Shown here one piece after another: positions 19,032 through 58,790 of a stretch of 64,000 bases of DNA. This DNA is from an uncultured Gemmatimonadaceae bacterium (lineage in GTDB: Bacteria > Gemmatimonadota > Gemmatimonadetes > Gemmatimonadales > Gemmatimonadaceae), in assembly GCA_963790305.1 (NCBI GenBank), contig CAWBOC010000009.1, positions 832,001 to 896,000 on the forward strand, read 5' to 3'. The notes beneath the pieces are model-generated. The model ran no database searches. It was not told where the DNA came from and saw nothing but the letters and a program-made list of their open reading frames with translations. A program made the position numbers and the translations under genes. The first letter of the stretch is position 1, and every line of letters starts with the position of its first letter.

Positions 19032-19142
19032 TGAACGCAGAGGACGCGGAGGTACGCAGAGGAACTTTAACTGCGAGTGCTTTGTGGAAAATGCTCCCGC
19101 AGTTGACGTTTCCTCTGCGTACCTCCGCGTCCTCTGCGTTCA
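19032..19142. repeat. family A hairpin (A1), CGCAGAGGA-type units
   Basis: 19032-19064 is a perfect 33-nt inverted repeat of 19110-19142; the stem continues inward (AACTGCG/CGCAGTT). Confidence 0.95.
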
Positions 19143-19296
19143 CAAAAACTCACTCAGATCAATCCTGGCGAGCCGCACCTTCTGCCCCGTCCTCGCCTGA
19201 TCCCCTACCTAACGCGGGACGACTACTACGTACGATGGCGTATTTCGCTCCCTCGCCGGATGCCCGATTGTATCGGTGTCAGGACAAGAGGGGCTC

Positions 19297-20343
19297 ATGC
19301 GCTACATCGTCGTCGTGGCCGCCTGCATCGGAACGCTCGCCGGGTGCCACTCGGATTCACCGACCGGTCCGCCCGTCTACCAGCCGATACCGCCCCCGCC
19401 GCTGGAAGCGCTACCGTTCGACCAGCTCGGCAGTGGGACGTTCGTGTTCATGCGCGAAGGGGCGGGACCGCCGATCTATAGCGCGGCCTACGTGATAGAC
19501 GGCTCTGGCCGCATCACTCTTCCTGCGCTGGGAAGCTCGGGCCGAATAGTAGATGCCCCGAGCGTAGCGCCAGATGGCCGACGGATCGCCTTCCTCGGGT
19601 ATAGTCGCGAGGCCACCGCGGCCTGGGACGTGTACGTCGCGAATCTCGACGGGAGCAATGAGCAACGCGTCGCCACGTTCGACTTCAACGCCGAAGGCCC
19701 GCCATTGTGGACGCCGGACGGAAGCCAGATCGCCTTCGTCGTAGGCGCCGGGGACTACGCGTTTATCTATCGACAGTCGCCAGTTTCATCGCCGACTGAC
19801 CGGGTGGTCGTTCGAAGCCTCATGGGCGCAGCAGACGGCTCACCGTGCCCCTTCATGCATCGCTCGAACGGGCCCATTTCGGTCTCGGGGGAAGGGGTAA
19901 TCGCGCTTAACTGCATCGGCAGCGAGATCGACGTCATACAGGCCGACGGAACGGTGACGGCCTCATACATCCCTCCGGCCCGACCCGCTGGCCACACGTC
20001 GGTCGTTCATGCGCCCGCGTGGTCGCCCGATGGCGAACAGCTCGCCTTCCTCGAGGAGATTCGCAACGCGAGCGGCTTCGTAGGAACCTCCGTCATTGTG
20101 GTAGAGCCATCCCGAGGACCGCCGACAGTCCTCGCAACGGTGCCCTCGAGTGCCGTAGGCGAGTACACCAACTTCGGCCCGTATTCATTGTGTTGGCTGC
20201 CGGGCGGCTCAGGAATCATGTTCACCGCGCCTGATGGGCCAACGGCGACGCATGTCTTCATTGTCGTACTCGAGAGTGGGGTGGTCACGCGAGTGACGTC
20301 GGCAGCGAACGTGCTCGACCACAGCGTTTCGTGCTCTCGGTGA
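19297..20343 (+). CDS. TolB-like beta-propeller lipoprotein
   Basis: LAGC lipobox; APDGRRIAF, WTPDGSQIAF and WSPDGEQLAF PD40-type repeats. Confidence 0.8.
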   Translation: MRYIVVVAACIGTLAGCHSDSPTGPPVYQPIPPPPLEALPFDQLGSGTFVFMREGAGPPIYSAAYVIDGSGRITLPALGSSGRIVDAPSVAPDGRRIAFLGYSREATAAWDVYVANLDGSNEQRVATFDFNAEGPPLWTPDGSQIAFVVGAGDYAFIYRQSPVSSPTDRVVVRSLMGAADGSPCPFMHRSNGPISVSGEGVIALNCIGSEIDVIQADGTVTASYIPPARPAGHTSVVHAPAWSPDGEQLAFLEEIRNASGFVGTSVIVVEPSRGPPTVLATVPSSAVGEYTNFGPYSLCWLPGGSGIMFTAPDGPTATHVFIVVLESGVVTRVTSAANVLDHSVSCSR

Positions 20344-20379
20344 CCGGGGCAGTACACTGACGCGACCGGTCCATTCTCG

Positions 20380-23300
20380 CTACTCCGCGGGCGGACCGTG
20401 CATCTCGATGCGGACGCCGCCCTCGCCTTGCTGGCCACGCCCCGGCATCAGTGGGTTCTTCACGTTCGCCGGCAGCTTCGCCCACTGCTCCGGCGTGAGG
20501 ATCGCCTCGAGATCCTTCGCGGCCTGCTCCGCCATCCGGCGGGCCGCCTGGAGGTTGTCGCGCATGCGGAACATTGTCGTCTGGGGATCCGGATTAGCCC
20601 CGACGTTGCCCAACACCTCGGCGATCTTCGCGATGGCTGTGTCGGCGCGGGCCTGAAGCGAGTCCCCCTTCACCGTGAGCGCGGCCTTTTGCTCAGCCGT
20701 CAGCCCCAGCGCCAGTGAATCGTTGAGCTCGATTGTCCGCCGGAATGGATTCGGGATCGTTCGCTGCATGCGCTGGCGCAGCTGCTCGGCGTTCATCTGC
20801 CGGCCACCAGGCCCGCGCGTCATCGCGCGAATCTGCTCGCGCGCTGGATCGGAGCCTAACGCCGCACGCACCTGAACGGCCAGCTGGAATGGCGAGCGGA
20901 ACGCGCTCCGCGACCCCTGCGCTGCACCGAAGCGCTCGTTGATCTCGTATTTGAAGCGCTGCGCGCTCGCATCGAAGCCGCGGACGTACATGAGCGTGCG
21001 ATCGGGGAAGCTCGGCTGGCCCCAGCCGCGGAGGTCGTCGTGCAGCAGCTGATCGAGCCCGGCGAGCGCATTGAGTGCGAGCACCGAGAAGGTGACGCGC
21101 CGGTTGAGCCCCCACCGGTTCGGACGGATGTTGAGCTGAAGGTCGAGCGACGAGCTCCAGGGCGCCGAGCAGGAGTTGCGCGACGCTATCGTCCCGAGCT
21201 GCGATGACAGACACTCGCGCGCGCGCTCCGGCGCCGTCGTCAGCAGGCGCATCATCCCGTGGACGACGGCGGTGTCGTATATGCTTTGCGGGCTAAAGGG
21301 GAGATGAATGAAAGCGCGATCGTTGCGCGCGCCGTCGCCGTTGACGTCGCCGCCGACCATCGGCGTGAAGCGCGCGCCCGAGCTGGCGCGGAAGATGGCC
21401 GAGAGCTCGAGTCCGGGGTTGAACGGCCACATGATCGTGCCGGTGATCGAGTGCCGACGCTCCTGGTCGCTGCGCCCCCAGTCGACGACGCGCGGATCAC
21501 CAGCGACGGACGAGCCGCCAAAGCCCTGCCCGCCACCCATCACCTGATCGCGCGAGCGCGTGAAGGTGTACGAGGTATTGAGCATGATCAGCCGGCGCGT
21601 GAAGAATCCATTCACGCCAAGGGTGAGCTGGCGCGTGTCCGACTTGAGCTTCGATGTGAGCTCGTTGACGAACCCGAACGTCTCGTAGACCCGCGAGGCG
21701 AGGAGCGGAACACCGCCGGTCATGGTGTCGATGGCCGCTGGACTCACGAACACCGGCCGATTCCCTTCCTCGGCGAGCGTGAATCCCGGCGTTGGGACGA
21801 GGTTGAGGTCGGTCGTCCCCATCTGACTCACGCCCCGCGCGAACGACGCGTCGAGCGAAACGTTCACGCGCTGATCCAGCAGTCGCCGGCTCACACCTAA
21901 CGATCCACGCCACGCCCTCGGCGCCCCGAAGCCGGGATCGAACACCGTGACGTTGGGCCTCGCAATGCGCTCCGGCGCCGCCGGGCCGGTGCACTCGGTG
22001 GGGATCCAGCCGGGGTCGCTCACGTACGACTCCCAGTCCGGCAGCGGTATCGACGACCCGATGCAGACGAGCTGGAACTCGCCACTCTGAAGCCCGGTCG
22101 CCTCACGAGCGAGGCCGAACAGGTGCGAGGGCGCGCGTCCGCGGAACTCGCCGATCCCTCCGCGAATGGTGAAGTTCGCCGGGCGGAACCGACCCTCCTG
22201 GCGGTTCTCGACGAGTCCGGGCATCCAGGTAAAGCCGATGCGTGGACTGACGTGCACCTCCGATGGGAATCGATCGGTGCGACGTCCGAACACCGATTCG
22301 ACGGCCGGGTTGTACGTCGCGGCCTCGGGATAGCGCGATGCTTCGAGGCGCACGCCATACGTGAGCTGGAGACGCGAGCTCTTGCGCCAGGCGTCGCCGA
22401 GGTAGAGCGCGGCGTTCTGGGATGCAGACTTGCGGTCGCCGGCGCTGAGCGTGCGGGTGAATTGGGCCGGGTTGTTGTTCTCGAAGTCCTCGAGGCTGTT
22501 GAAGGTGAACGTGCCGTAGCGATTCGGGATGAGGCCGACGTTCGACCGCTCCTGATTGAGCAGGCCGCCGAGCTTCACGCGGTGGGCGCCGTCCGGTGAG
22601 ATCCAGGAGATCTCATCGGAGATCTCGCGAAGCATCGTGCGCGTGGCCTGCGGCAGTGATGGGTTGCCGCCGAACTGAAGCGTCGTGATGCCGCCGGTGA
22701 TCGTGTCGCGCGTCACGACACGGCCGTCCGGGATCGAGATGTAAGGGTCGGTGTCGCGATTGTCGACCGACTGGTAGGCGCGCAGCTCGTTAATGAAAGA
22801 GCCGAGCTGCGACGTGAGCGTGAGCATGCCCCCGCCGCCGGTGTTGTCCCCTTCCCCGCCGTTGTTAGGTACGGCGAGTGGTCCGATGCGGGTGGCTTCC
22901 TGTGCGGACCAGCGAAAGTCGCCGCGCGCCATGAGCGTGTGAGAGTCGGTGAGCCGGTAGTCGGCGCGAACGAGAGTCGAGGCGTGGTCGACGAGGGCGT
23001 CGCGCGGGATGCCGGGAAGCGTGGCCGGGATCCCCTGCGAGTTCATGGCGACGAGGAAGCGATCAACGAGCGCGGGGTCGGTGCCTAACCGCTGGAGCGT
23101 GACCGAGTCGGCGGAGAGGAGCGACATGAGGTCGGTCGTGCGGCGCGAGATCGTGAATGCACCGAACGCGAAAGCCTTGTCCTTGACGATCGGCAGGCCG
23201 AAGCCGCCCGACAGCTGGTTCTGCCGGTATTTGCCGAACGACGCGTCCTCATCGACGAACTCGAGCGACGGATCGCGGAACGAGTAGTTGAAGACCCCCT

Positions 23301-24057
23301 GCTTCATGTTGGTGCCGCCGCGCGTCGTCGAGGCGATCATGCCACCGGTGAACTGGCCGCGGCCGACGTCGTAGGTGCTGGTGATGATGCGCGTGTTGCG
23401 CAGCGCTTCCTGCGGGATCTCGCTTCTGCCGAAGGAGAGCCCGTCGAGGGTGATGCTGTTTTGGTCGGACGGCTGGCCGGCGACGGAGAAGGCCTGCGGC
23501 GTGGAGTCGGTGCCGGCGATGCCGATGACGCCGGGCGCGAGCGTGGCAAGGTCGTTGAGGTTGCCGGCGTCGACGGGCATGCGCGTCGTCTGGCCTGACG
23601 AGAGCAGGCGTTCGGTGTTGCCGGCTTCTGGTCGTGGCGGGCCTTGGGGTCGCTGTTGGCCGCGGACGACGACGGGGGCGAGCTCGTGGGCCTGCGCGCG
23701 GGACATTTGGACGTTGGCGACGAGGCGGTCTTCGTCGGCCTGGCGCTGGACGGTGGTCTGGAACGGCGCCATCCCGAGGTAGGTGACGCGGAGCGTGTAG
23801 GCGCCGCCGCCGTCGGGGAAGACGATGGAGTATTGGCCTTTGGCGTTCGTCAGGCGGTTCCGCGTGATTCCCGACTCAGCCGAGGTGACTTCGACGCGGG
23901 CGTTCTCGAGCGGGAGAGAGTCGGGGCCGGTGACGCGGCCGAGGATGATGTCGGTGGTCGAGCCAACCTGGGCCTTTGCCGGGAGCGGCACTATGACCCA
24001 GCCCAAGGCAAGGCTGAGCATCGCGAGAACACGGACGCCACCAGGAATAGGACGCAT
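20380..24057 (-). CDS. TonB-dependent-receptor-like outer membrane protein with carboxypeptidase-regulatory-like N-domain and helical C-terminal tail
   Basis: signal peptide, ILGRVTGPD..PL..ARV, plug-like LATLAPGV..NSITLDG, YDV.RG.FTGG, barrel strands, LTAEQ/LTPEQW tail. Confidence 0.85.
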   Translation of the reverse strand: MRPIPGGVRVLAMLSLALGWVIVPLPAKAQVGSTTDIILGRVTGPDSLPLENARVEVTSAESGITRNRLTNAKGQYSIVFPDGGGAYTLRVTYLGMAPFQTTVQRQADEDRLVANVQMSRAQAHELAPVVVRGQQRPQGPPRPEAGNTERLLSSGQTTRMPVDAGNLNDLATLAPGVIGIAGTDSTPQAFSVAGQPSDQNSITLDGLSFGRSEIPQEALRNTRIITSTYDVGRGQFTGGMIASTTRGGTNMKQGVFNYSFRDPSLEFVDEDASFGKYRQNQLSGGFGLPIVKDKAFAFGAFTISRRTTDLMSLLSADSVTLQRLGTDPALVDRFLVAMNSQGIPATLPGIPRDALVDHASTLVRADYRLTDSHTLMARGDFRWSAQEATRIGPLAVPNNGGEGDNTGGGGMLTLTSQLGSFINELRAYQSVDNRDTDPYISIPDGRVVTRDTITGGITTLQFGGNPSLPQATRTMLREISDEISWISPDGAHRVKLGGLLNQERSNVGLIPNRYGTFTFNSLEDFENNNPAQFTRTLSAGDRKSASQNAALYLGDAWRKSSRLQLTYGVRLEASRYPEAATYNPAVESVFGRRTDRFPSEVHVSPRIGFTWMPGLVENRQEGRFRPANFTIRGGIGEFRGRAPSHLFGLAREATGLQSGEFQLVCIGSSIPLPDWESYVSDPGWIPTECTGPAAPERIARPNVTVFDPGFGAPRAWRGSLGVSRRLLDQRVNVSLDASFARGVSQMGTTDLNLVPTPGFTLAEEGNRPVFVSPAAIDTMTGGVPLLASRVYETFGFVNELTSKLKSDTRQLTLGVNGFFTRRLIMLNTSYTFTRSRDQVMGGGQGFGGSSVAGDPRVVDWGRSDQERRHSITGTIMWPFNPGLELSAIFRASSGARFTPMVGGDVNGDGARNDRAFIHLPFSPQSIYDTAVVHGMMRLLTTAPERARECLSSQLGTIASRNSCSAPWSSSLDLQLNIRPNRWGLNRRVTFSVLALNALAGLDQLLHDDLRGWGQPSFPDRTLMYVRGFDASAQRFKYEINERFGAAQGSRSAFRSPFQLAVQVRAALGSDPAREQIRAMTRGPGGRQMNAEQLRQRMQRTIPNPFRRTIELNDSLALGLTAEQKAALTVKGDSLQARADTAIAKIAEVLGNVGANPDPQTTMFRMRDNLQAARRMAEQAAKDLEAILTPEQWAKLPANVKNPLMPGRGQQGEGGVRIEMHGPPAE

Positions 24058-24127
24058 TCTGAAATAGGCCTTGTTAAGCGGGAGAGCCCCACCACACCGG
24101 AGTAGTCTCTAGTGTTCGTCACCTAAT

Positions 24128-24154
24128 TACGGGGACCGGGTTTGCCGCGTTGCA
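24128..24154 (-). promoter_or_regulatory. candidate ECF-sigma promoter of the receptor gene
   Basis: minus strand TGCAAC-N17-CGTA. Confidence 0.5.
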
Positions 24155-24300
24155 ACGGACTTTGATCCGCAGGTGGCGGGTTCGAGACGAACGAATCATT
24201 TGGAGCAACCTCATTCGGATAGGCGGCCTGGATTGCCGGCAACCGGCGCGCGTGCCATCATCGCCGTAGCGGTACAGTGGCACTCATACGGAGGTAGGCG

Positions 24301-25644
24301 ATGATCAGGCTCGCGGCGGCAATCCTTCTTCCTCTCGCGGCACTAACCGCCGCTCTCGCCACGCCGACGCAGGCACAATCCCCGCTGAGCAGCCAGCTGC
24401 AGGCGCGCATCACGGCGATCGAGCCCAAGGTCGTCGCCTGGCGGCGTGACATTCACCAGCACCCGGAGCTCGGCAACCGAGAGGTCCGCACCGCCAAGCT
24501 GGTGGCCGATCACCTGCGTGCGCTCGGGATCGAGGTGCAGACGGGCGTCGCACACACCGGCGTCGTCGGACTATTGCGCGGTGGGCGGCCGGGACCGGTC
24601 GTGCTTCTCCGCGCCGACATGGATGCGCTTCCGGTGACCGAGCGCGTCAACCTCCCATTCGCATCGAAGGCGAAGGCGACGTACAACGGCGCGGAAGTGG
24701 GAGTGATGCACGCCTGCGGGCACGACACCCACGTCGCCATCCTGATGGGGGTCGCCGAAGTGCTGGCGTCGATGAAGAACGAGCTTCCGGGGACGGTGAA
24801 ATTCGTCTTCCAGCCGGCTGAGGAAGGTCCGCCGCAGGGAGAGGAAGGCGGCGCGAAGCTGATGGTGAAGGAGGGAGTGCTCGCCAATCCGACTGTCGAT
24901 GCTGCCTTCGCCCTCCACATCTCGTCCAAGCAGGAGGTGAATGGGATCTACTACAAGCCCGGAGGCACGTACGCGAGCTCGGACGATTTTCGCATCACCG
25001 TGAAAGGAAAGCAGACCCACGGCGGATATCCCTGGAACGGCGTCGATCCCATCGTCACGTCGGCGCACATCATCACCGCGCTCCAGACCATCGTGAGCCG
25101 GGGGATGGAGCTCACCTCGAACGCGGCCGTGGTCACAGTCGGGAAGATTCAGGCCGGAGTCCGCGCGAACATCATCCCCGAGCAGGCGGAGATGATCGGG
25201 ACGATCCGCGCCCTGACGCCAGAGGATCGGACACGGATTCACGACCGCGTTAGGCAGATCGCCACCTCGGTCGCGGAGAGCATGGGCGCGACCGCCGAGG
25301 TGCAGATCCCGGTCACGACCGAGTATCCGGTCACCTTCAACAACGAAGCGCTAACGGCTGCGATGGTACCGGTGCTTGAATCGGTGGCCGGCCCGGGCCG
25401 GGTGCGGCTCGTTCCCGCGGAGACGGGAGCCGAGGACTTCTCCTTCATCGCGCAGAAGGTGCCGAGCTTCTACATCCAGCTCGGTGGGCGTCCGGCCAAC
25501 GTCAAGGAAGAGGACGCCGCCGATCATCACACGCCTGATTTCTACATCGATGACAGCGGGCTCGACCTCGGCGTAAAGGCGTTGACGGCAATGACGCTGC
25601 ATTACATGCGCACACGCCCTGCCGCGCGTGCGGCGGCCCCGTAG
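24301..25644 (+). CDS. secreted M20 family amidohydrolase
   Basis: HPELGNRE, LRADMDAL, MHACGHD, FQPAEEG, AEDFSF. Confidence 0.92.
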   Translation: MIRLAAAILLPLAALTAALATPTQAQSPLSSQLQARITAIEPKVVAWRRDIHQHPELGNREVRTAKLVADHLRALGIEVQTGVAHTGVVGLLRGGRPGPVVLLRADMDALPVTERVNLPFASKAKATYNGAEVGVMHACGHDTHVAILMGVAEVLASMKNELPGTVKFVFQPAEEGPPQGEEGGAKLMVKEGVLANPTVDAAFALHISSKQEVNGIYYKPGGTYASSDDFRITVKGKQTHGGYPWNGVDPIVTSAHIITALQTIVSRGMELTSNAAVVTVGKIQAGVRANIIPEQAEMIGTIRALTPEDRTRIHDRVRQIATSVAESMGATAEVQIPVTTEYPVTFNNEALTAAMVPVLESVAGPGRVRLVPAETGAEDFSFIAQKVPSFYIQLGGRPANVKEEDAADHHTPDFYIDDSGLDLGVKALTAMTLHYMRTRPAARAAAP

Positions 25645-25653
25645 CGCCCGGCG

Positions 25654-26764
25654 TTAGCTACCGCTGCGGTCGAGCGCGCTCGCGACGTCGCTGATGAGAT
25701 CCTCCGTGTACTCACATCCCACGCTGAACCGCACGAACCCCTCGCTGATCGCGTCACCTCCCCACCGCGCGCGCCGCTCGGCGCTCGAGTGTACGCCGCC
25801 GAAGCTCGTCGCTTCTCGTACGAGCGTGAGCGCGCTCAAGAACGTCTCTGCACGCTCGCGCGTGCCGAGGTCGAAGCTCACCACGGACCCGAACGCCAGC
25901 ATTTGCTCGCGCGCGATCGCGTGCCCAGGATGCTTCGGCAAGCCCGGATAGTACACGTCCTCGACGTCGGACCGCATCGAGAGAAAGTTGGCCAGCTGCT
26001 GCGCTGAGCCGCACTGCTGCGTCAAGCGCAACGGCAGCGTCGCGAGCGAGCAATGCGCGAGCCACACCTCCATCGGTCCCGGAACCGCCCCATGCTGCGT
26101 TCGCCAGGTCCGCAGCGCGGTCGCCTTCTCGGCGTCGCGGGTAGCGACATGGCCTAACACGAGATCGCTATGACCGGTCAATGCTTTCGTGTCCGAGGCG
26201 ACCACGCAGGTAGCGCCAAGGTCGAGCGGTTGCTGAAGGTACGCGGTGGCGGTGGTGTTATCGACGACAACCTGCACGCCCTCGGCCTTCGCCGCTTCAA
26301 CCAGCACGCGGATGTCGCAGACATCGAGCTGTGGATTGGTCGGTGTCTCGATCAGAAGCAGCTTCGCACCCTGGAGCCGATCTGCCTGTGCATTGTCGCG
26401 CGTAGGCGCCAATCGAACCTCGACGCCGAGCTTCTCGAGCCAGCTGGATGCGAGCAGCCGGGTGGTGTAGTAGCAATCGGAGGGCAGAACGATGGCATCA
26501 CCGGCCGCGAGCGTCGTGCCAAAAATGGCGCTCATAGCGGCCATCCCCGAGGCGAACGCGACCGAATGCCCTCCTTCGAGGACGCCGAGCGCCGTTTCCC
26601 ACGCCGTCCACGTTGGATTCTGGAAGCGGCCGTACGTGAGCGCGTGTCCGGCGGGATCCCCGCGCGCCGTGTACGTGGATGAAAATTGCGGCCCACCTAG
26701 AGAATGGACCCTCGAGCTCGGGACCGCGGTAGCCCGCGTGGAGGATGGCTGTGTCTCGATGCAC
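25654..26764 (-). CDS. cystathionine gamma-lyase/synthase family PLP enzyme; +1 frameshift near 26701
   Basis: N-terminus MHRDTAILHAG joins LGGPQFSSTY..YGRFQNPT..FASGMAA after removing one base; ETPTNP, VVDNT, SDTKALTGHSD. Confidence 0.8.
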
Positions 26765-26833
26765 TAATGTGCGACCTCTCGCATGTTGGCGTTGCCAGAA
26801 ATGGGCGGTGGCTCCGTCCAGTTTAGCATAGGC

Positions 26834-26923
26834 GAGTGGAGAGTGAGAGTGGAGAGTGGAGAGTGGAGAGTGAGGAGTGATACGAATTTCTCACTCTTCA
26901 CTCCCTACTCTCCACTCTCCACT
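26834..26923. repeat. inverted heptamer tandem-repeat element (family C3, GAGTGGA/TCCACTC)
   Basis: about 7 GAGTG(G)A units at 26834-26880, then reverse units at 26891-26923. Confidence 0.9.
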
Positions 26924-27007
26924 GCCGCGGACGACCGGTCCCACTGCGCGGCCAGATCGTCCCTCCATCGTTGCCCGCTCCTGCCACCGGTCTCACATTG
27001 GCCCAGA

Positions 27008-28342: not shown

Positions 28343-28354
28343 CTGCGGCCCGTG

Positions 28355-28861
28355 TCAGCCGCCGTCGGACTGCGCCACGGGAAAGATCAAGCACGTCGTC
28401 GTGCCGGAGGCGAGCAGGTCACCGTTCGAGTCAGTGAGACGACCTTCTGCCGACGCGATGCGCCCACCACGCGAAAGGACCTTCCCCTCGATCCTCACTT
28501 CACCCGTTCGGTGAGTGATGGGCTTGTGAAACGCGATCTTGATCTCGAGGCTCGTGTAGCCTTCCCCCGCCTTGAGCGTCGAGTGAACCGCACAGCCCAT
28601 GGCGGTGTCGAGTAGCGTCGAGGCGTAGCCGCCGTGAATGGACCCGATGGGATTGTAGAATCGCTCGTCAGGCAGGGCGCGGAAGAGAATCCGCCCAACC
28701 TCGACCTCGACAGGCGCAATCGGTATCACCGCCGCCATCGGCGGCAGCGGATAGCGTCCTTCCCCCATCCCCTTCAGGAACTCGAGGCCGGGCTGAGCGA
28801 GAACTTCTTTCAGCGACACGAGGCCCACCTGTAAACCGGTCAGCGGATTCACCGCTGGCAT
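28355..28861 (-). CDS. PaaI family thioesterase
   Basis: YNPIGSIHGGYASTLLDTAMGCAV; AGGAGG RBS. Confidence 0.9.
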   Translation of the reverse strand: MPAVNPLTGLQVGLVSLKEVLAQPGLEFLKGMGEGRYPLPPMAAVIPIAPVEVEVGRILFRALPDERFYNPIGSIHGGYASTLLDTAMGCAVHSTLKAGEGYTSLEIKIAFHKPITHRTGEVRIEGKVLSRGGRIASAEGRLTDSNGDLLASGTTTCLIFPVAQSDGG

Positions 28862-28907
28862 GCAACCTCCTTGGGAGCGACGCCTGTTCTGCGTACAACG
28901 CTTACCG

Positions 28908-30396: not shown

Positions 30397-30410
30397 GCGC
30401 GTGTTGACGA

Positions 30411-36212: not shown

Positions 36213-36267
36213 ACTCTAGGCTGTGCGATTTCAATGGGTGGGCTGGGTTGGTATCCCCCATGTTTTC

Positions 36268-36374
36268 TTACCGCAGAGGTCGCAGAGGACGCAGAGGAAC
36301 GTCAACCGCAAATGCTTTTGAAAAGCCTCTGCCAGTTGAAGTTGCCTCTGCGTTCTCTGCGACCTCTGCGGTAA
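36268..36374. repeat. family A hairpin (A2)
   Basis: 36268-36297 versus 36345-36374 inverted 29/30; central GCTTTTGAAAAGC. Confidence 0.95.
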
Positions 36375-36415
36375 AATGCCGTTGGCTTTGCTTTCACGCC
36401 TCCGCTGGAGCCCAC

Positions 36416-50843: not shown

Positions 50844-50845
50844 TA

Positions 50846-50861
50846 TCTGACTTTAGTCAGA
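50846..50861. promoter_or_regulatory. palindromic operator of the MarR-GNAT gene
   Basis: TCTGACT-TT-AGTCAGA just upstream of the ATG, overlapping a TTGACG-N18-TAAAGT promoter candidate on the minus strand. Confidence 0.65.
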
Positions 50862-50926
50862 GAACACCTCCGGCGTCAAGTCCGTGCGCAACGAGCTTGG
50901 TGAGTCTAATCGGCGCTCACGGACCC

Positions 50927-51316
50927 TCACGATGCGACGCTGACGGCGCTCACGTGGCCGGCCACGATTCGCCACCCCTCTGGCCGAGCGGACCAGATGC
51001 GCGTGTAGCGAAAGGGCCCGGTGAACGGCGCGCCTTTGAAGGTCCCGCTCATGTCCATCCGGACGATGACAATGGCGATGTCACCGAACCGCTGAATGCG
51101 CTCGTCGCTCGCCTCCAGCCGAGTGATTCGCACCGTTCCGTTCCGGTGAGCGTCGAGATCATCGGCCTTCGAGTACAAGGCGCCGTCCGGACCGGTGAAC
51201 ACGAGCTCATCGTCCAGGAGTCGCTCGAGCTCGGCAACGTCACTCGCGAGCTGGGCTCGCCGGAGCGCCGCCTCGCACGTGAGCAATGAATCGTCGGAGG
51301 TTTCAACGCGGCGCAT
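50927..51316 (-). CDS. NTF2-like DUF4440 protein
   Basis: LLDDELVFTGPDG, FRYTRIW....GWRIVAGH. Confidence 0.8.
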   Translation of the reverse strand: MRRVETSDDSLLTCEAALRRAQLASDVAELERLLDDELVFTGPDGALYSKADDLDAHRNGTVRITRLEASDERIQRFGDIAIVIVRMDMSGTFKGAPFTGPFRYTRIWSARPEGWRIVAGHVSAVSVAS

Positions 51317-51334
51317 AACGAATCAATGGTTGAA

Positions 51335-52570
51335 TCAGGTGGCGGCGCGCTCAGGCGACGCGCGGTACTGGCCTGGCAGCGGCTCGACGACGAAGAGAAA
51401 CGCGACGAATGGCAGCGCCACGACGGCAATGGCCACGACGCCAAGTCCCGCCAGCCCGTGCGTGGCGAACCAGACGCCCCCGCTCGTCGCTATCGCCGCA
51501 GCAGTGAGCTGCGTGATCAGGTCGGCCCGCCCAAGAATGCGAGCGCGCCGGCTCGGCACGGTGATGTCAGTGAGCAGCACTGACGCGCCAATGTAGCCAA
51601 AGCTCCAGCCGAGTCCCACGATCAGGAGGCCGGCGGCGAAGCCGGCCATGGTGGGAACGACCGTGACCACGGCGCCGCCTACGCCAAGCAGGACCAGCCC
51701 CACGAGGATCGTCAGGCGGCGCCCCCAGCGATCGGTGACATGACCGACGACGCGCGAAAGACCGTACATGCCAATGAAATGCAGCATCATGATCGACCCG
51801 AGCACACCGGCACCGTGGCCCGCGTGAACGACCGCGACGCCGGCGACTCCCATTACCGACGCCATCGCTGCGTGACTGGCGGCCAGCGCGATGACACCGA
51901 TGATGAGAAGTCGCCGTGACCTGACGCCGCCACTGTCGGGCAGCGCGCCCGGCGCATGGGGGTGCGCCCGCTCGATCTCTTTCGCGATGTCCATGGGCTC
52001 GGCCGCGCGTCGGAGCGTCAGGGCGCCGGCGATCAGCAGCGGTGGCGCGATCCACCAGACGATCCCCAGTGCGTTGCGTCCAATCGCGTGACCCAACGGC
52101 TCGGTGAGCATGAGGAGCAGCGGTCCCACGATCGCTCCGGCGATCGCGCTCGTCTGCAACCACGCGATGCCCTTGCCTCGCTCGGCGGGCGGAAACATCT
52201 CGGCCGCGGCGATACGTGTGAGCCCGCCGATTCCCATCGCCGCCGCGAACACCAGAATGCCGGCAATGAACAGCGCCAGTACGCCGAACGCGACGCCGAC
52301 GCCGGCGATCGTGTATCCCGCGGCGCCCAGCACATATCCCGCCATGAGCACCGGACGTCGCCCCCAGCGATCCATCGCGCGTCCGCCGACGGCGGCCCCC
52401 GCGGCGGCGCCGAGGTTGAGCAAAGCGACATAGAGACCCGCGAAGCGTGCCTCACCGCTCAACGCGACCAGCGCGGCCGAGCCTGGGCCAGCGGTCATCG
52501 ATGCCGCCGCGAACCCCATGGCAAAGGCTGCCGCGAGGACCACGAGGGTGCGACGGACGATCTCGTTCAT
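51335..52570 (-). CDS. MFS transporter
   Basis: about 12 TM segments; MDRWGRR and TDRWGRR motif-A copies. Confidence 0.88.
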   Translation of the reverse strand: MNEIVRRTLVVLAAAFAMGFAAASMTAGPGSAALVALSGEARFAGLYVALLNLGAAAGAAVGGRAMDRWGRRPVLMAGYVLGAAGYTIAGVGVAFGVLALFIAGILVFAAAMGIGGLTRIAAAEMFPPAERGKGIAWLQTSAIAGAIVGPLLLMLTEPLGHAIGRNALGIVWWIAPPLLIAGALTLRRAAEPMDIAKEIERAHPHAPGALPDSGGVRSRRLLIIGVIALAASHAAMASVMGVAGVAVVHAGHGAGVLGSIMMLHFIGMYGLSRVVGHVTDRWGRRLTILVGLVLLGVGGAVVTVVPTMAGFAAGLLIVGLGWSFGYIGASVLLTDITVPSRRARILGRADLITQLTAAAIATSGGVWFATHGLAGLGVVAIAVVALPFVAFLFVVEPLPGQYRASPERAAT

Positions 52571-52583
52571 GAATGGCGACGCG

Positions 52584-53327
52584 TCAGGCCGTGGTCATGA
52601 CGACCGGCGCGTGATCGCTCGTGCCCACGTCAGCCTGCACGACGCAGCCCGTCGCCTGCGTCGCCACCGCCGGCGATGCCAGCACGTAATCGAGTCGCCA
52701 TCCAATGTTTCGCGCTCGCATGCTTCGCCACGGGGCCCACCAGGTGAAGAGACCGGGATTATCGGGATCGAACCGGCGGCCGACATCTTCGAGACCTGCG
52801 CTGAGCATGCTCTCGAACAACGCTCGCTCCTCCGGTCGCTGACCCACGATGCCAGGCTTCCGCTCCTTGGGATGCACGTCCATCTCGGTGCGCGCAATGT
52901 TGATGTCCCCGCACAGGACCAGCGATCGCCCCTCGGAGTGCAGCCGCCGCACCCAGTCGATCATCAGCGTCATGAAGTTCAACTTGGCCGGGTAGTCTTT
53001 GCCGCCGTTCGGCACGTACACCGATGCGATGACCAGATCGTCACGCTCCACCTGCACGATGCGCGACTCATAGTCGAACGCAGGATGGCTGTACACCGGT
53101 TCCGCACCGAAGCGATCCTTGCGGAGCATGAGCGAAACGCCGGAGTACGCCTTGAGGCAATGCCAGTACGCATGGTAGTCGGCCGACTTGCACTGCTCCG
53201 GAATCTGGCTCTCCTCGGCCTTGAGCTCCTGCAAGCACACCACATCCGGTCGCTCGCGCTCCAGCCATTCCTGAATCTGCGTAGCGCGCGCGCGAATGCC
53301 GTTGACGTTCCAGGTCGCGACTTTCAT
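52584..53327 (-). CDS. xth: exodeoxyribonuclease III
   Basis: MKVATWNVNGIRAR, CLQE.K, YVPNG, GDIN, WRLDY, SDHAP. Confidence 0.93.
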   Translation of the reverse strand: MKVATWNVNGIRARATQIQEWLERERPDVVCLQELKAEESQIPEQCKSADYHAYWHCLKAYSGVSLMLRKDRFGAEPVYSHPAFDYESRIVQVERDDLVIASVYVPNGGKDYPAKLNFMTLMIDWVRRLHSEGRSLVLCGDINIARTEMDVHPKERKPGIVGQRPEERALFESMLSAGLEDVGRRFDPDNPGLFTWWAPWRSMRARNIGWRLDYVLASPAVATQATGCVVQADVGTSDHAPVVMTTA

Positions 53328-53493
53328 ACGGATGCCGGCCGCTTTCCTCTGTAGACGTCGGTGCTCAAATACTTCTTGAGACTACGGTGGGATTCTCCCA
53401 CTCCAGCTTCACGAAGATGCGAGCGCACTCGGCTGGTACAACCCTGCGGAGCCGTACGATTGAAGTGCTTCCAATAGCGCGAAGAACGTTCAT
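53324..53493 (-). pseudogene. cysteine synthase relic: N- and C-termini fused, core deleted
   Basis: MNVLRAIGSTSIVRLRRVVPAECARIFVKLEWENPT, then in another frame SLKKYLSTDVYRGKRPASV* overlapping the xth ATG. Confidence 0.8.
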
Positions 53494-53518
53494 GCCGTTG
53501 CCGAGATTCTGGGAGGCC

Positions 53519-53630
53519 TTTTAACGCAGAGGACGCGGAGGGCGCGGAGGAACTTCAACTGTAAGAGCTTCTTTCAAAGGCCTTCATAGTCGAGGTTCCT
53601 CCGCGTCTTCTGCGCCCTCTGCGTTGAAAA
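53519..53630. repeat. family A hairpin (A3)
   Basis: 38-nt arms with 6 mismatches, all transitions; central GCTTCTTTCAAAGGC. Confidence 0.92.
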
Positions 53631-53679
53631 AACGTCCGGGCTCGTTGCACGCATCCGCGGACCCGAAAGGCCCGCTCGC

Positions 53680-53709
53680 AAAAGAGGCGGACCCGAGAGT
53701 CCGCCTCTT
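53680..53709 (-). terminator. intrinsic terminator after the SRPBCC gene
   Basis: AAGAGGCGGAC-CCGAGA-GTCCGCCTCTT with a short U-tract on the minus strand. Confidence 0.7.
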
Positions 53710-53740
53710 CAAATCTATCGCCGCCGGCAACGGCCTTGCG

Positions 53741-54229
53741 TTAGTCGATAGTCGCGAGCAGCCTGTCGAGCGCCTCGTAGCTCTGGTTGAGCCCCTCCTC
53801 CATCCCCGACTCCAGCATCCCGTCGCGCTCGTCGGTCGTGTGGAACAGCGAGAGGGTCACGACCTTCGTCCGGCCGTCCCCGAGGTCGCTGAGCTCCAGC
53901 GTTTCGATGATCACGTAGGCCGGCATGCCATCCCACTCGAAGGTCTGGACGATGCGGTCCTGCGGCGTTACCTCGCGGAACCGTCCCTCGAAGCCGTGCT
54001 TGCCCTCGGGACCGTGCTCGACGAAGCGCCAGTGTCCGCCCCGTTCCAGCTCGAACTTCTCGATGACGAGCTTGTTCCCGCGGCCCCACCACTGCGCGAG
54101 GAGCTTCGGATCGGTGAAGGCGCGCCACACGCGGTCGCGTGGTGCATCGAAGGTGCGCTCGATGCGGATCTCGCGCTCGCTGGGCTTGGAGACGGTCGCC
54201 TTGTTTGCGGATTTCGTTGCTGTGGTCAT
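53741..54229 (-). CDS. SRPBCC/AHSA1 (START-like) protein
   Basis: IERTFDAPRDRVWRAFTDP..L.QWWG, GMEEG....YEALDRLL. Confidence 0.9.
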   Translation of the reverse strand: MTTATKSANKATVSKPSEREIRIERTFDAPRDRVWRAFTDPKLLAQWWGRGNKLVIEKFELERGGHWRFVEHGPEGKHGFEGRFREVTPQDRIVQTFEWDGMPAYVIIETLELSDLGDGRTKVVTLSLFHTTDERDGMLESGMEEGLNQSYEALDRLLATID

Positions 54230-54564
54230 GATGCTCCTCCTTTGGTGCGCTCGAGAAATCTCCCGAGACGGTCGAGACGGGCGTCTACCATCTCCTGGTA
54301 CATCCGCATCCAGGCCGCTTCGGCGTCGAGCCGTTGCGGACCCAGGCGGCACGTGCGAACCCGGCCGACCTTTTCCGTGGCCACCAGCCCCGCCTCCTCG
54401 AGCACGGCGATGTGCTTCTTCAGGCCCGTGAGGGTCATGTCGAACTGCGCCGCGAGATCGCTGATCGACGCGTCGCCGCGCCCGAGTCGGTGGAGGATGC
54501 CACGGCGGGTCGGATCCGAGATCGCCGCGAACGCCCTGTCCATGTGGGGTGAATACTGAACCAT
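54226..54564 (-). CDS. ArsR family regulator
   Basis: FAAISDPTRR.IL..L, KHIAVLEEAGLV..EKVGR.R. Confidence 0.9.
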   Translation of the reverse strand: MVQYSPHMDRAFAAISDPTRRGILHRLGRGDASISDLAAQFDMTLTGLKKHIAVLEEAGLVATEKVGRVRTCRLGPQRLDAEAAWMRMYQEMVDARLDRLGRFLERTKGGAS

Positions 54565-54576
54565 ATGGTTCAGTAT
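54553..54576. promoter_or_regulatory. ArsR operator overlapping its own start codon
   Basis: perfect 24-bp palindrome ATACTGAACCATATGGTTCAGTAT. Confidence 0.8.
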
Positions 54577-54610
54577 AGCACGCCCGTCCACGGCGCGCAA
54601 GCCCCGGACC

Positions 54611-54688
54611 CAGGTCGTCGAGGATGTCGAGGTGAACCGGGTGAGTCGCCTCGCCCACCTCGACATCCTGGGCGACCTCGACTACCTC
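54611..54688. repeat. family B hairpin (B3)
   Basis: CAGGTCGTC GAGGATGTC GAGGTGAAC ... CACCTCGACATCCTGGGCGACCTCGACTACCTC. Confidence 0.85.
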
Positions 54689-54694
54689 TGCACG

Positions 54695-55618
54695 ATGGTC
54701 CTCATCGCGCGAGTGATCGGTCTCACGATCCTCCTCTTCATCTGCTTCGCGGTGGCGGGAACACTCGTGAGGCTTCCCGAGGCCTCACCGCCCAGTGAGA
54801 CGGCAGGCTCGCCAGTCATCACGCTGCTCGCCGTTTGTTTTCTGAATGCCGCGGTCCTCACCCACATCATCCTTCGCTCCCGGTGGGCAGGCTGGCGGCT
54901 CGCCGCCACCGTCTTCCTCGTGTTCTATGGCGTGACGACGTTCATGGGTCAAATCGAGTCGGCAATATTCATCACGCGACTCCCGCCCGGGGCGTTGCCC
55001 AGGCTGTTTCTGATGGGCGCCCTCGTCGCCGCACCGTTCTCGGCGCTGGCGGTTCTCATTCTCGGCAAGCGAAAACCGTCGACGTCGGACGTTGGGCCCA
55101 ACACACGTCTCCAGATGCCGGCGAGCGAATGGGCGTGGAAGCTCGGCGTCATCGCGGTCCTCTACGTCATTCTCTACTTCACCTTCGGCTATTTCGTGGC
55201 CTGGCGACATCCGGAAGTGCGCGCGTACTACGAAGGCGTCGACACCGGCAGCTTCGCCGCGCACATGGCGATGGTCATCCGAGACACGCCATTGCTCATC
55301 CCTATTCAGATCGTGCGAGCGTTGCTGTGGACTGCGCTCGCGCTGCCCGTCATTCGGATGATGAAAGGGAAGAGGCTCGAAACGGCACTGGCGATTGGGT
55401 TGCTCTTCTCCGTCGTCATGAACGCGCAGCTATTGCTCCCCAACCCCTACATGCCGGAAGCCGTGCGCATGGCGCACCTGGCTGAAACGGCGTCATCCAA
55501 CTTCCTGTTCGGGGCCTTCATCGGTTGGCTGCTGAGCAAGCGACACACTGCTGACGGAGGCGCTCTGCGACCTCAGCCGGTCCATCGCCGCGACATAGAT
55601 CGCGCCGCCGTACAGTGA
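54695..55618 (+). CDS. multi-pass membrane protein
   Basis: about 8 hydrophobic segments; LLLPNPYMP..VRMAHL.ET.SSNFLFG. Confidence 0.75.
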   Translation: MVLIARVIGLTILLFICFAVAGTLVRLPEASPPSETAGSPVITLLAVCFLNAAVLTHIILRSRWAGWRLAATVFLVFYGVTTFMGQIESAIFITRLPPGALPRLFLMGALVAAPFSALAVLILGKRKPSTSDVGPNTRLQMPASEWAWKLGVIAVLYVILYFTFGYFVAWRHPEVRAYYEGVDTGSFAAHMAMVIRDTPLLIPIQIVRALLWTALALPVIRMMKGKRLETALAIGLLFSVVMNAQLLLPNPYMPEAVRMAHLAETASSNFLFGAFIGWLLSKRHTADGGALRPQPVHRRDIDRAAVQ

Positions 55619-56110
55619 GGGCCGAGTCGCGGTGAACGTCGGAGCGGTCAGCCCGGCGTGTGCGGCAATCTGCGGCAAACGGTCGCTGTCGATTGGATAG
55701 GGCACCCATCGGCTCGCACGTCGGCGATCGTACTCGACGACGACGACGCGACCTCCCGGCCGCACGCGCTCGACGAGTCGAGCCAACACACCGGCGGGAT
55801 GCGAGACGAAGTGAAGCGCGTTCGCCACCACGATCCCCGCGAGGAGTTGCGCGCCGAGCCCAGGCAGGTCGAACGGAACCTTGAAATCGGCGACGACCGG
55901 AATCACGTTCGCCTTCGCGCGTGTCGCCCACTGCCCGAGCCCACGCAGCGCGTGCGCATCGTTGTCGACGGCGTAGACTCGACTGCCGGGCTCGAGCAGC
56001 TGCACGAGCGCTCGCGTGAACGTCCCCTCCCCCGCCCCGATGTCCGCCCAGCTGCCACCGCGATCTTCGACCGCCGAAGCAATCAAAGTCGCCGCCTCAC
56101 GAGTGTTCAC
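55493..56110 (-). CDS. class I SAM methyltransferase
   Basis: WADIGAGEGTFT, VYAVD, ANALHF, RPGG. Confidence 0.85.
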   Translation of the reverse strand: MNTREAATLIASAVEDRGGSWADIGAGEGTFTRALVQLLEPGSRVYAVDNDAHALRGLGQWATRAKANVIPVVADFKVPFDLPGLGAQLLAGIVVANALHFVSHPAGVLARLVERVRPGGRVVVVEYDRRRASRWVPYPIDSDRLPQIAAHAGLTAPTFTATRPSLYGGAIYVAAMDRLRSQSASVSSVSLAQQPTDEGPEQEVG

Positions 56111-57018
56111 TACCCGACCTCGATCCAGCCCTCACTGACGAGAACACTGCCACCGCCAATGTGCGCGGAGACGAGAGCGTCGTCGCGCTTCTCGACTCTC
56201 GCCTCGAGAACGCTCGGGCGCCCGATCTCGACGCCCTGCGAAATGCGATAGCGAAACGTTCCCGCGGGAGTGGGATCGTAGTGCGTCAGCATCGCGGCCA
56301 GCGCGCAGTTGGCGCTGCCGGTCGCGGGATCCTCCGGAATGCCGTCGAGTGGCGCGAACATTCGCACGTGAAGGTCAAAATCGCCGGTGTCCTTGGGCCC
56401 CGTGCGAACATACATGTGGATGTCGGGCATCACGCCCTCGGCAGCAAGCGTATCGAACGCCCCCGTGTTGATGCGCGCACGTTTGAGCGCAGCGCGATCC
56501 CTGAGCTGCACCATGATGAACGGCAACCCGACAGAGGCGACCTGCGGCGGGTGGGTGTCGGTGAGAAAGTCATCCGGGGAGAGCGATACCGCCGCCGCGA
56601 CCGACTGCAACTGCACCCTCTTTCCAATCGACAGCTTTTCCGGTGCGGTCAGCTCGCAGAAATAGCGTTCACCGCGGCGTTCAATCCACATGGGAACGAC
56701 GCCGGCCTTTTCCTCGAACGTGACGGTTATCGAGTCGCGGATGTCGCCAAAGCCACCCGTCGTCGCGAGCGTGAAGGCGGTTCCAACGTTCGGATGGCCA
56801 GCAAAGGGAACCTCATTCGCGGGCGTGAAGATCCGAACGCGTCGGGTGTGGCCCGCTATCGGCGGCAATACGAAGGTGCTCTCCGCGAAGTTGAACTCGC
56901 GCGTGATCTGCTGCATCTGCTCCGTCGTCAGTCCTTCGGCCGACGGAAGCACCGCGAGCTGATTCCCACCGAAGCGCTTATCGGTGAAGACGTCGCAGAT
57001 GTAGTACTGGTAGCGCAT
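56110..57018 (-). CDS. PhzF family protein
   Basis: DVFT..RFGGNQLAV, E.PFAGHP, EDPATGSA; start at MRYQYY. Confidence 0.92.
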   Translation of the reverse strand: MRYQYYICDVFTDKRFGGNQLAVLPSAEGLTTEQMQQITREFNFAESTFVLPPIAGHTRRVRIFTPANEVPFAGHPNVGTAFTLATTGGFGDIRDSITVTFEEKAGVVPMWIERRGERYFCELTAPEKLSIGKRVQLQSVAAAVSLSPDDFLTDTHPPQVASVGLPFIMVQLRDRAALKRARINTGAFDTLAAEGVMPDIHMYVRTGPKDTGDFDLHVRMFAPLDGIPEDPATGSANCALAAMLTHYDPTPAGTFRYRISQGVEIGRPSVLEARVEKRDDALVSAHIGGGSVLVSEGWIEVG

Positions 57019-57027
57019 GGTAGGGAT

Positions 57028-57118
57028 GAGGTAACCGAGGTCGTCCAGGTCGTCCAGGTGATCCAGGAAACGTCGTTGCCCTCGATCACCTCGACATCTT
57101 CGACGACATCGATCACCT
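57028..57118. repeat. family B hairpin (B4), same element as B1 in the opposite orientation
   Basis: spacer AACGTCGTTGCC is the reverse complement of B1 spacer GGCAACGACGTT. Confidence 0.9.
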
Positions 57119-57605
57119 ATGGGGTTCGTGCCGGCCGCTCGCTGAGCGAGCTTGGCGCCTCGGCATTCGCACCCGAGTCCACGCCGATGCCCAGTCGCGT
57201 CACGAGCTCGCCCCCGAGCCACCCCGTGACCGCTCCGATCGCGACGCCGACCGCCGAGAGCAGAAGTGCGAAGCCGTCGGGGGCCGCCGTGTTGTCCTTG
57301 CGAAGCATCAGGCTCGCCGCGAACAGCAGGATGACGATGACGTTCCCGACGCCGTGCAGGAGGCCGATCCGCTTGGCGCGGGTACCGTTGGGAATTCCGA
57401 TCCAGTCCCAGATGCCGAATGGCGCCGCGGCCAAGCCGCCAGCCACGCCAGCGACGATCATCCAGAACGCCACGACGGCCCAGAGTGAATTGTCCGTGAC
57501 GAGATAGATCACGTCGAACACGACCGACGTGATCAGCAGACCGAGCGGGAACACGATCAGCTGTTGATGGATCGGGTGGCCGAACAGCTTGGCGCGGCTT
57601 TCCAC
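57117..57605 (-). CDS. DUF2231 membrane protein
   Basis: GHPIH..L..FPLG, GIWDW, H.VGN, GWLGGELV..LGIGV. Confidence 0.85.
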   Translation of the reverse strand: MESRAKLFGHPIHQQLIVFPLGLLITSVVFDVIYLVTDNSLWAVVAFWMIVAGVAGGLAAAPFGIWDWIGIPNGTRAKRIGLLHGVGNVIVILLFAASLMLRKDNTAAPDGFALLLSAVGVAIGAVTGWLGGELVTRLGIGVDSGANAEAPSSLSERPARTP

Positions 57606-57637
57606 AGGTCCCTCCTCGCGTGGGTAATCCAGAAGTC

Positions 57638-58612
57638 CTAACGTGCTGGTGCCGGCGTGAGCAGCACCTTTCCGCTCGTCTGCCGGCTCTCGAGCGCGCG
57701 ATGTGCCTCGGCCGCCTTGGCAAGCGGAATCGTTCGATCGATGCGAACGTTGATCGTTCCTTGCTCGACCCACCGAAAGAGCTGCTCACTGCGCTCCAAC
57801 AGCTCATCTCGCGTCGGCACGTAGTGCGCCAGCGTCGGCCGAGTGAGGTAGAGTGAGCCCTTCCTGCTGAGGACCAGGGGGTCGATGGGGCCAACCGCCC
57901 CGCTCGATTGGCCAAAGGAGACGAGCATCCCCCGCGGCGCCAGTGCGTCGAGACTGTCGTTGAACGTCGCTTTTCCGACAGAGTCGTAGACCACCGGCAC
58001 ACCGCGACCGGCCGTCCGCTCCTTCACCTCGGCGACGAAATCCGCGTACGAGACGACACGCTCCGCCCCCGCCGCACGCGCGCGCGCCTGTTTCTCGCTG
58101 CTCGATGCCGTGCCGATCACGTGCGCGCCTCGCTTCGCGCCCAACTGGCACAGCAAGAGCCCGACGCCGCCGGCAGCGGCATGCACGACACACCACTCGC
58201 CCGCCTTCAGCGCGTAGGTGGATGTCGTCAGATATTGAGCCGTTAGGCCCTGCAGCATTGCCGCCGCGGCAACCTCGGTCGACACCCCCGCCGGGATGCG
58301 CACCAGACGCTCGACCGGGGCAATGGCGAGCTCGGCGTACGTCCCGCGAAAGCTTTCGGAGACGACGCGATCGCCGATCGCGACCTCGCTCACGCCCTCG
58401 GCCACGGCGATCACCTCGCCAGCCGCTTCTGACCCCGGTGTAAAGGGAAGCGGTCGCGCGTACAATCCGGTACGCTGGTAGACCTCGATGAAGTTGACGC
58501 CCGCCGCGTCGACGCGAACCAGCGCCTCACCCGGACCAGGCGTTGGCGCGGCCACCTCCTCGAGCTTGAGGACGCTCGCGTCACCGGTTTGCCGAACGAC
58601 AATCGCTTTCAT
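57638..58612 (-). CDS. qor: NADPH:quinone oxidoreductase (zeta-crystallin/Qor)
   Basis: GVNFI..Y.R.G.Y, HAAAGGVG, VYDSVGK, KGSLYLTRP. Confidence 0.9.
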   Translation of the reverse strand: MKAIVVRQTGDASVLKLEEVAAPTPGPGEALVRVDAAGVNFIEVYQRTGLYARPLPFTPGSEAAGEVIAVAEGVSEVAIGDRVVSESFRGTYAELAIAPVERLVRIPAGVSTEVAAAAMLQGLTAQYLTTSTYALKAGEWCVVHAAAGGVGLLLCQLGAKRGAHVIGTASSSEKQARARAAGAERVVSYADFVAEVKERTAGRGVPVVYDSVGKATFNDSLDALAPRGMLVSFGQSSGAVGPIDPLVLSRKGSLYLTRPTLAHYVPTRDELLERSEQLFRWVEQGTINVRIDRTIPLAKAAEAHRALESRQTSGKVLLTPAPAR

Positions 58613-58632
58613 CGCTTGGTTCGCGGGGTTAA

Positions 58633-58790
58633 GGAACCGCAGATGGCCGCGTTCACTGCAACTGCATTTTGAACGCAGAGGACGCAGAGGGGCGCAGAGG
58701 ACCACAATGGCAGGAGCTTTTCAAATGCGTTCACCGTGCAATCCTCCGCGCCCTCTGCGTCCTCTGCGTTCAAAGAAATGCAGTTGCAGT
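58633..58790. repeat. family A hairpin (A4) with outer inverted repeat, preceded by a GxxExxY-type arm fragment
   Basis: GGAACCGCAGATGGCCGC at 58633-58650; ACTGCAACTGCATTT/AAATGCAGTTGCAGT outer arms; CGCAGAGG inner arms about 58668-58774. Confidence 0.92.

Follow-up and report, generated by a model that had tools for sequence, protein, structure and literature searches.

A 64,000-bp stretch of the genome of an uncultured Gemmatimonadaceae bacterium (positions 832001–896000 of contig C9 of genome G000; below, the window) contains four gene-less hairpins of about 110 bp, A1–A4, which raises the question of what kind of element they are and which gene, if any, maintains them. The source genome G000 comprises 4.31 Mb in 13 contigs and is 94% complete; C-numbers denote its contigs, other G-numbers the genomes of relatives, and L-numbers loci. 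The four hairpins are genuine members of a dispersed DNA repeat family of this soil bacterium, termed family A, and arms of the same family flank a gene for a GxxExxY protein on contig C5 (locus L001). The explanation that we favor, with a probability of roughly 0.6, is that the family A hairpins are non-coding DNA repeats that this cognate GxxExxY nuclease maintains and slowly spreads, similar to the REPIN–RAYT systems (REPINs are hairpin-forming doublets of REPs (repetitive extragenic palindromes), and RAYTs are REP-associated tyrosine transposases) but made of unrelated parts.

All four hairpins lie where a preliminary description of this DNA had placed them, as confirmed by new measurements of arm coordinates and complementarity, and none of them is assigned to a strand. 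A1 (19027..19147) has arms at 19027–19064 and 19110–19147 with 95% complementarity; it is located between divergent genes encoding a 3-keto-disaccharide hydrolase-like protein (minus strand) and a PD40 beta-propeller protein (plus strand), and no orthologous flanks were found in the relatives' genomes. A2 (36263..36378; arms 36268–36297 and 36345–36374, 97%) lies between divergent genes for a pyridoxal phosphate (PLP)-dependent decarboxylase and a LysR protein. A3 (53517..53633; arms 53519–53560 and 53588–53629, 83%) has a terminator-like stem on one side and the remnant of a truncated gene on the other, and all six internal mismatches of its arms are transitions. A4 (58666..58778; arms 58668–58691 and 58751–58774) has 24 perfectly paired base pairs with pairing that continues inward; it is located between divergent genes and nested within GCAACT hexamers. 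As previously noted, each arm contains three CGC(A/G)GAGG units. The z-scores of single-stranded DNA folding are −12.7, −13.0, −7.4 and −8.3 for A1–A4, and none of 200 shuffled sequences was equally stable in any of the four cases. The remnant beside A3 (53330–53500) corresponds to a gene of about 900 bp that is intact in G077 and G152; judging from a motif, it may be a PLP-dependent cysteine synthase-like gene.

The genome census of family A identified 18 copies in G000, compared with none in the reversed-genome control. Four of the 18 fall below the arm-identity filter of 0.72 due to unequal unit numbers and were retained by inspection. Twelve copies have the conserved core and six are short forms; in addition, a cut right arm was found at the start of contig C5. 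All 18 are intergenic according to crude gene calls. The four copies in the 64-kb window constitute a local excess over the 0.27 expected.

The arms of a copy are matched to each other. The distance between the outer 22 nucleotides is 2.0 within a copy and 3.2 between copies (18 copies, permutation p<5e-5), and for the four window copies alone the respective values are 2.5 and 5.5 (p=0.04). Among 25 aligned copies, 34 cells were changed on both sides versus 14.3 +/- 3.0 in shuffled alignments; none of 500 shuffles reached 34, a figure inflated by related rows. Two-sided changes were also found at orthologous sites: GGTCGC/GCGACC at the A2 site in G000 is replaced by GGCCGC/GCGGCC in G077, and AACGC/GCGTT at the A3 site by ACCGC/GCGGT in G077 and G152. 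The variants regarded as copy-specific in the preliminary description do occur in both arms of one copy but are not unique: the GGTACGC insertion of A1 is also present in both arms of the copy at C5:462, and TTACCGC, seen in A2, is the commonest cap in the family A alignment. Similarly, the core described as common to the four hairpins is conserved in 12 of the 18 copies but is not private to family A, as it also occurs inside four family C hairpins and one family B hairpin.

Covariation of the arms is predicted alike by selection on pairing and by templating of one arm on the other. Selection on pairing could reflect a function for the host, with the hairpins acting as transcript stabilizers, processing sites or terminators and with GxxExxY binding or cutting the RNA form. 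Most within-copy mismatches of full-length arms are transitions and thus keep G-U pairs on one of the strands; between convergent genes, family B is overrepresented (16 of 39 copies versus 11% in the background); and hairpins persist for a long time at orthologous sites. We nevertheless find such a function improbable. The gene context of family A (nine tandem, five divergent and four convergent sites) is close to the background (p=0.13), three of the four window copies lie between divergent genes, and, of the seven copies in tandem context with a transition mismatch, only three have the G-U pairs on the transcribed strand. In close relatives, the site frequently has no hairpin or is occupied by another family. 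No Rfam family was matched in the 64-kb window, and no tRNA was recognized. An analysis of strand bias of the G-U pairs gave nothing consistent, whether relative to transcription or to the orientation of the core.

Four GxxExxY genes were found in G000, each beside its own arm type, and every arm type also forms gene-less copies (18 of family A, 33–34 of B, 6 of D and 20 of E), so that there is one hairpin family per GxxExxY gene. A1–A4 had been proposed to be partners of the GxxExxY element in the window. This assignment did not hold. The window cassette (11166..11657, plus strand) consists of a gene at 11190–11648, with a likely ATG at 11199 inside the arm, enclosed by GGAACCGCAGAT arms at 11166–11207 and 11616–11657. 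The same arms form the six gene-less hairpins and define family D, and the protein lies outside the A/B clade described below, which rules this gene out as the family A partner. The second gene has CACAGAG arms (family B), and the third has GGGACGCGGAT arms (family E, 20 paired copies among 26 arm hits). The partner of family A is the fourth gene, C5:12–431, outside the window; it starts right behind the tail of a family A right arm with which the contig begins, and a complete family A hairpin comes after it.

Orthologues of the partner gene in G077, G152 and G155 are 89–91% identical and lie between family A hairpins by the same LuxR-ATPase gene. The gene behaves as mostly sessile and not as an autonomous element that multiplies. 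In these four genomes of one genus it is single-copy at a fixed locus, and the ratio of nonsynonymous to synonymous substitution rates (0.04–0.10 in five of six pairs, 0.35 in one) indicates purifying selection. Around the gene (L001:455–7880), G000 and G155 are 90–93% identical versus 76–82% elsewhere, and the synonymous distance between G152 and G155 in the gene is low (0.11); the region is possibly a transferred island.

The partner gene is flipped relative to LuxR in the G000 assembly as compared with G077, G152 and G155, with breakpoints within the hairpins. The hairpin and the start of the partner gene are duplicated in tandem in G077, and a duplication of the two is also present in G152. 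These rearrangements, together with the variation among relatives of genes next to hairpin sites and a metagenome contig on which back-to-back A arms bound a frameshifted DUF6883 gene and a DUF4926 gene beside a Fic gene (L431:860–1690), would fit arms that are recombination sites delimiting exchangeable cassettes, integron-like in effect, with gene-less hairpins as empty cassettes. The prospects of this explanation are poor: no gene is enclosed by family A arms in G000, the hairpin ends were on inspection unlike the attC core GTTRRRY, and ordinary recombination between repeats accounts for the same events.

The partner protein (125 residues) contains the GxxExxY motif and is a full member of its family, with 133 bits to TIGR04256 (cut-off 35) and 133.7 bits to PF13366. 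The predicted structure (predicted local distance difference test score, pLDDT, of 90) is a minimal PD-(D/E)XK fold. The closest structural neighbors are the BpuSI nuclease domain (3s1s, Z 8.3) and a Spirosoma protein (Z 8.1–8.3), followed by the Cas4 protein SSO0001 (4ic1; Z 8.1, root-mean-square deviation 3.5, 100 aligned residues) and Hjc (1gef; Z 6.5), and all top matches have the PD-(D/E)XK fold. A Z of about 8 establishes the fold and says nothing on the substrate. Foldseek yielded no match at E<=0.001, and a sequence search for relatives of solved structure gave only chance hits (E>0.6). Among 79 sequences, E41, E91 and Q105 are invariant, while D81 and K93 are nearly so; we take E41, D81 and E91-x-K93 to be catalytic and Q105-xxx-Y109 to be RecB-like, as in the superfamily. 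By these features, the protein is predicted to be a nuclease, a minimal PD-(D/E)XK enzyme similar to Cas4, RecB and Hjc with intact motif residues. The fold and catalytic motifs agree with the published description of the PDDEXK_3 family, which is listed with an unknown function and multiple transfers, with no mention of repeats in the part of that source that was available (PMC3424549).

The association between hairpins and genes was surveyed in one even draw of 151 genomes of the family, the tallies of which include the unpublished G007, G034 and G134; none of the conclusions depends on any one of these three. PF13366 was matched in 108 of them. The strict family A pattern was found in 16 genomes (control, 0), all with a PF13366 gene (16:0 versus 92:43, p=0.006), and in none of the 43 genomes that lack such a gene. 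The partner clade, defined by matches to the partner protein at E<=1e-20, is represented in 62 of the 151 genomes, and the joint A/B hairpin pattern in 39. Hairpins of this pattern occur in 31 of the 62 genomes with the partner clade and in 8 of the 89 without it. Since genomes of close kin are not independent, the comparison within genera is the more trustworthy figure: among 21 genera with both states, 12 are positive, none is negative and nine are ties (p=5e-4). A hairpin adjoining the gene can itself count as a hit, yet all 12 genomes with at least 15 hits have the gene. In the genus of the source genome, family A is present in four of four genomes with an orthologue of the partner gene (16 pattern hits in G000, 26 in G077, 26 in G152 and 5 in G155) and in one of five without it (G151, 81% complete). 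Across genomes, the hairpins thus co-occur with the matching GxxExxY clade, in line with the correlation proposed in the preliminary description as a check.

Arm class follows protein clade. In a tree of 84 proteins, which were chosen largely by best score (one row is from G034, and five of 89 sequences were dropped as shorter than 78 residues), one clade (98 by the Shimodaira–Hasegawa-like approximate likelihood ratio test) has A or B arms in 34 of its 41 rows, and such arms were found in 1 of the 43 rows outside it. Arms were also counted within 300 bp of the gene for the best 80 of 375 GTDB relatives, some of which repeat loci of the family search. Strict A arms were present at 25 loci from eight phyla, B arms at 29 and neither at 26, compared with 2 of 64 in a distal control; many of those inspected among the 26 have visibly variant arms. 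Twelve of the 25 strict-A loci have the order arm–gene–arm. Thus, GxxExxY genes flanked or enclosed by arms of family A do exist; their complete absence would have contradicted the preliminary description. In G039, the hairpins flanking the gene are a dispersed variant specific to that genome. Exact A arms were found at no fewer than 123 metagenome loci, 80 of which were examined: 32 are hairpins, 12 have too little room, two have GxxExxY within 450 bp, and six have a distant arm with no GxxExxY between. Nine of 11 hits on viral contigs are hairpins.

Family A sites turn over among relatives. The A2 site is occupied in G077 by a copy with a different core and is devoid of the hairpin in G152. 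The A3 site is occupied in both, with the cap changed on both sides. The A4 site contains family A in G152 and other hairpins in G077 and G153. Outside the window, G155 has family A at the site C5:5534 and G152 has a different family there, and the copies at C5:203834 and C10:241174 are shared by G077 and G152 but missing from G153/G155 or G151. Conversely, of 47 copies in relatives, 16 have flanks resolvable in G000, 29 do not and two are at contig edges. Two of the 16 correspond to family A in G000, one is an artefact of the partner-locus duplication and 13 map to 10 sites, of which six are short and empty, three contain another hairpin family and one contains a collapsed A remnant. Orthologous sites in relatives are thus occupied, empty or swapped, although gain is indistinguishable from loss, since none of the empty sites was clean enough to define its junction.

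Several copies are central in older hairpins of family D or E or of the heptamer type (L350, L371, L358 and A4). Outside A4, the left-arm remnant of a family D hairpin (58633..58650, plus strand), the arm type of the window GxxExxY gene, is evidence of nesting. A hexamer layer is present at 10 of the 18 G000 copies of family A (background, 89 of 1478). We also considered nesting of A inside D as a rule and rejected it, since a D remnant is present at 2 of the 18 copies (background, 8 of 1478). Nesting is frequent, but it is not the rule.

The main rival explanation is that the hairpins multiply by a host-encoded or other route, such as slippage, recombination or another small protein, and that GxxExxY inserts at recognized arms, as REP-targeting insertion sequences do. 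In G000, families F and C lack a partner gene, there are hairpins in genomes with a broken gene or with none found, and several arm families with one core that swap at the same sites point to common machinery. But the partner gene is single-copy at one locus, unlike an element that targets abundant repeats, and both the lack of the family A pattern in the genomes without PF13366 and the one-sided within-genus sign test tie the repeats to the gene. We consider this rival unlikely.

Among known systems, family A most resembles REPINs, doublets that form hairpins with compensatory changes and of which each group is described as linked to its own RAYT, a single-copy gene that is inherited vertically (PMC3116915, PMC5581495). 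Family A is likewise an inverted doublet that forms an intergenic hairpin of about 100 bp with conserved ends, a variable spacer and compensatory changes; an enzyme gene that is single-copy and mostly vertical lies beside its own repeats, and there are several pairs of repeat group and gene per genome. The differences are as follows. The family A partner is a PD-(D/E)XK nuclease, while RAYTs are HUH Y1 transposases. The arms are built from three direct CGC(A/G)GAGG units behind a T-rich cap and not from small palindromic REPs; across these hairpin families the units are tandem, 8–10 nucleotides long and without a GTAG/CGTC tag. Copies number in the tens, a single pair of arms often encloses the gene, and families nest in each other. 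The REP superfamilies with GTAG/CGTC are also dispersed extragenic palindromic repeats of many phyla, some of them dimers, but according to their description they are tied to tyrosine transposases or to none, and family A lacks the terminal GTAG/CGTC (PMC3733652). Gemmatimonas does not occur in the main text of that paper.

The least probable explanation is an ordinary miniature inverted-repeat transposable element (MITE) whose movement depends on a DDE or Y1 transposase. MITEs are short and non-coding, with terminal inverted repeats and an enzyme that acts in trans. Family A shares the terminal inverted repeats, the length of about 110 bp, the lack of coding capacity, the dispersal and the polymorphism. 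Unlike in MITEs, the whole element folds and the partner is a non-transposase that does not multiply. No target-site duplication was seen at orthologous sites, the empty ones being too diverged for defined junctions. No PF01797 (Y1 transposase) match was found in G000 at its 94% completeness. At the loci examined, the arms enclose GxxExxY (12 of the 25 A-armed GTDB loci) and no transposase was seen inside them. In G000, no A arms enclose any gene, including a DDE transposase gene, and no further search for DDE transposases was made. Integron attC sites are, like family A, imperfect palindromes of about 100 bp that could fold as single strands. Family A differs from them in its right-end consensus GCGGTAAAAAA, which has no GTTRRRY core, in being dispersed and not arrayed, and in its symmetrical arms of tandem units. 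An array of attC-like repeats that weakly resembles the core of family A (E 0.3–15) was found outside the window at C9:696000–722500 and is probably an integron cassette array.

As to how the cognate nuclease might maintain and spread family A, we propose the following scheme. The enzyme would recognize its cognate arm units once the DNA has folded as a single strand or been extruded as a cruciform, and cut there. PD-(D/E)XK enzymes hydrolyze DNA and are not known to transfer strands; therefore host recombination and repair would be needed for completion. A donor hairpin would be copied into the break, often in the center of a palindrome already present that has the GCAAC(T/G) hexamer layer or the core in common with it, and such copying could produce nesting and family swaps at these sites. 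Arms would become self-matched when one is repaired by folding back on the other, and recombination between two flanking hairpins would flip, duplicate or delete the intervening DNA, including the gene. Spread by a GxxExxY-type enzyme, as put forward in the preliminary description, agrees with the association of gene and hairpins and with the tracking of clades; we infer the spreading itself, as well as arm cutting, hairpin copying and dependence on the nuclease.

Several observations weigh against nuclease-driven maintenance and spread. About 40 family F hairpins (9-mer type) and five family C hairpins in G000 have no partner gene that we could find. Half of the partner-clade genomes (31 of 62) lack hairpins of the strict pattern, eight genomes have hairpins with the gene undetected, and G153 (89% complete) has related hairpins and no PF13366 match. 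The cognate genes are frameshifted, in two pieces, in the high-copy genomes G039 (90 hits) and G066 (17 hits). A and B arms are interleaved within the clade, with six changes on the tree. Many copies are old, A3 and at least three other sites being common to relatives at 82–90% identity, and target-site duplications were not seen. The inversion in G000 sits at a contig end and may be an assembly effect; the assembled contigs of relatives showed no joint bearing on it. On metagenome contigs, 30 of the 80 arms examined have no partner arm despite sufficient room, and the arms of L431 bound other genes.

A broader view, which we hold tentatively and at somewhat below even odds, is that such replicating repeats are widespread in bacteria and possibly in archaea, and that they would combine a domesticated hydrolytic nuclease, host repair, a clade-specific arm code and homing into the centers of older hairpins. 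The pairing of GxxExxY genes with hairpins was not described in the literature searched; subscription journals and supplements may contain a mention.

Other GxxExxY loci and hairpin families provided additional observations. The family D locus is old, as a GxxExxY gene follows the same oxidoreductase gene end in G000, G077, G127, G076 and G098, with different arms. At the G127 site corresponding to 11166–11657 of the window, the GxxExxY protein is about 50% identical and the arms are of another type, while the flanks are 86–88% identical; either cassette replacement or fast evolution may explain this difference. At L182 and L198, the GxxExxY 3' end and an arm are partially duplicated in tandem, which suggests recombination at arms. 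At C7:4658, a family E hairpin is broken by an apparent insertion-sequence end. Family F, with units GAGGTCGTC/GAGGTGATC, is represented in the window at 14733–14830, 15284–15323, 54612–54690, 57025–57125 and 63781–63859, and a cupin gene lies within a long family F pair (14747–15308); in G077, the 63781 site is occupied by another hairpin family, and there is almost nothing at the 14733 site. Heptamer-armed hairpins were found at 4216–4361, 8931–9056 and 26845–26923 of the window. Dozens of hairpins of the 8931 type occur in G077, where the same site has a different number of units; in G127, the hairpin is replaced.

In soil bacteria, the repeats appear to favor local inversions and duplications as well as the exchange of genes. 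If the proposed relationship between family A and its nuclease is true, it would give a role to PF13366, a family of unknown function that is common in these genomes, and it would mean that the lifestyle of REPINs and RAYTs, in which the enzyme is sessile and its non-coding partners are dispersed, evolved twice, the second time from unrelated components. Four enzyme–repeat pairs with different arms in one genome make the specificity directly testable by swaps of proteins and arms, and a nuclease of 125 residues with a readable and evolvable arm code would be of practical interest.

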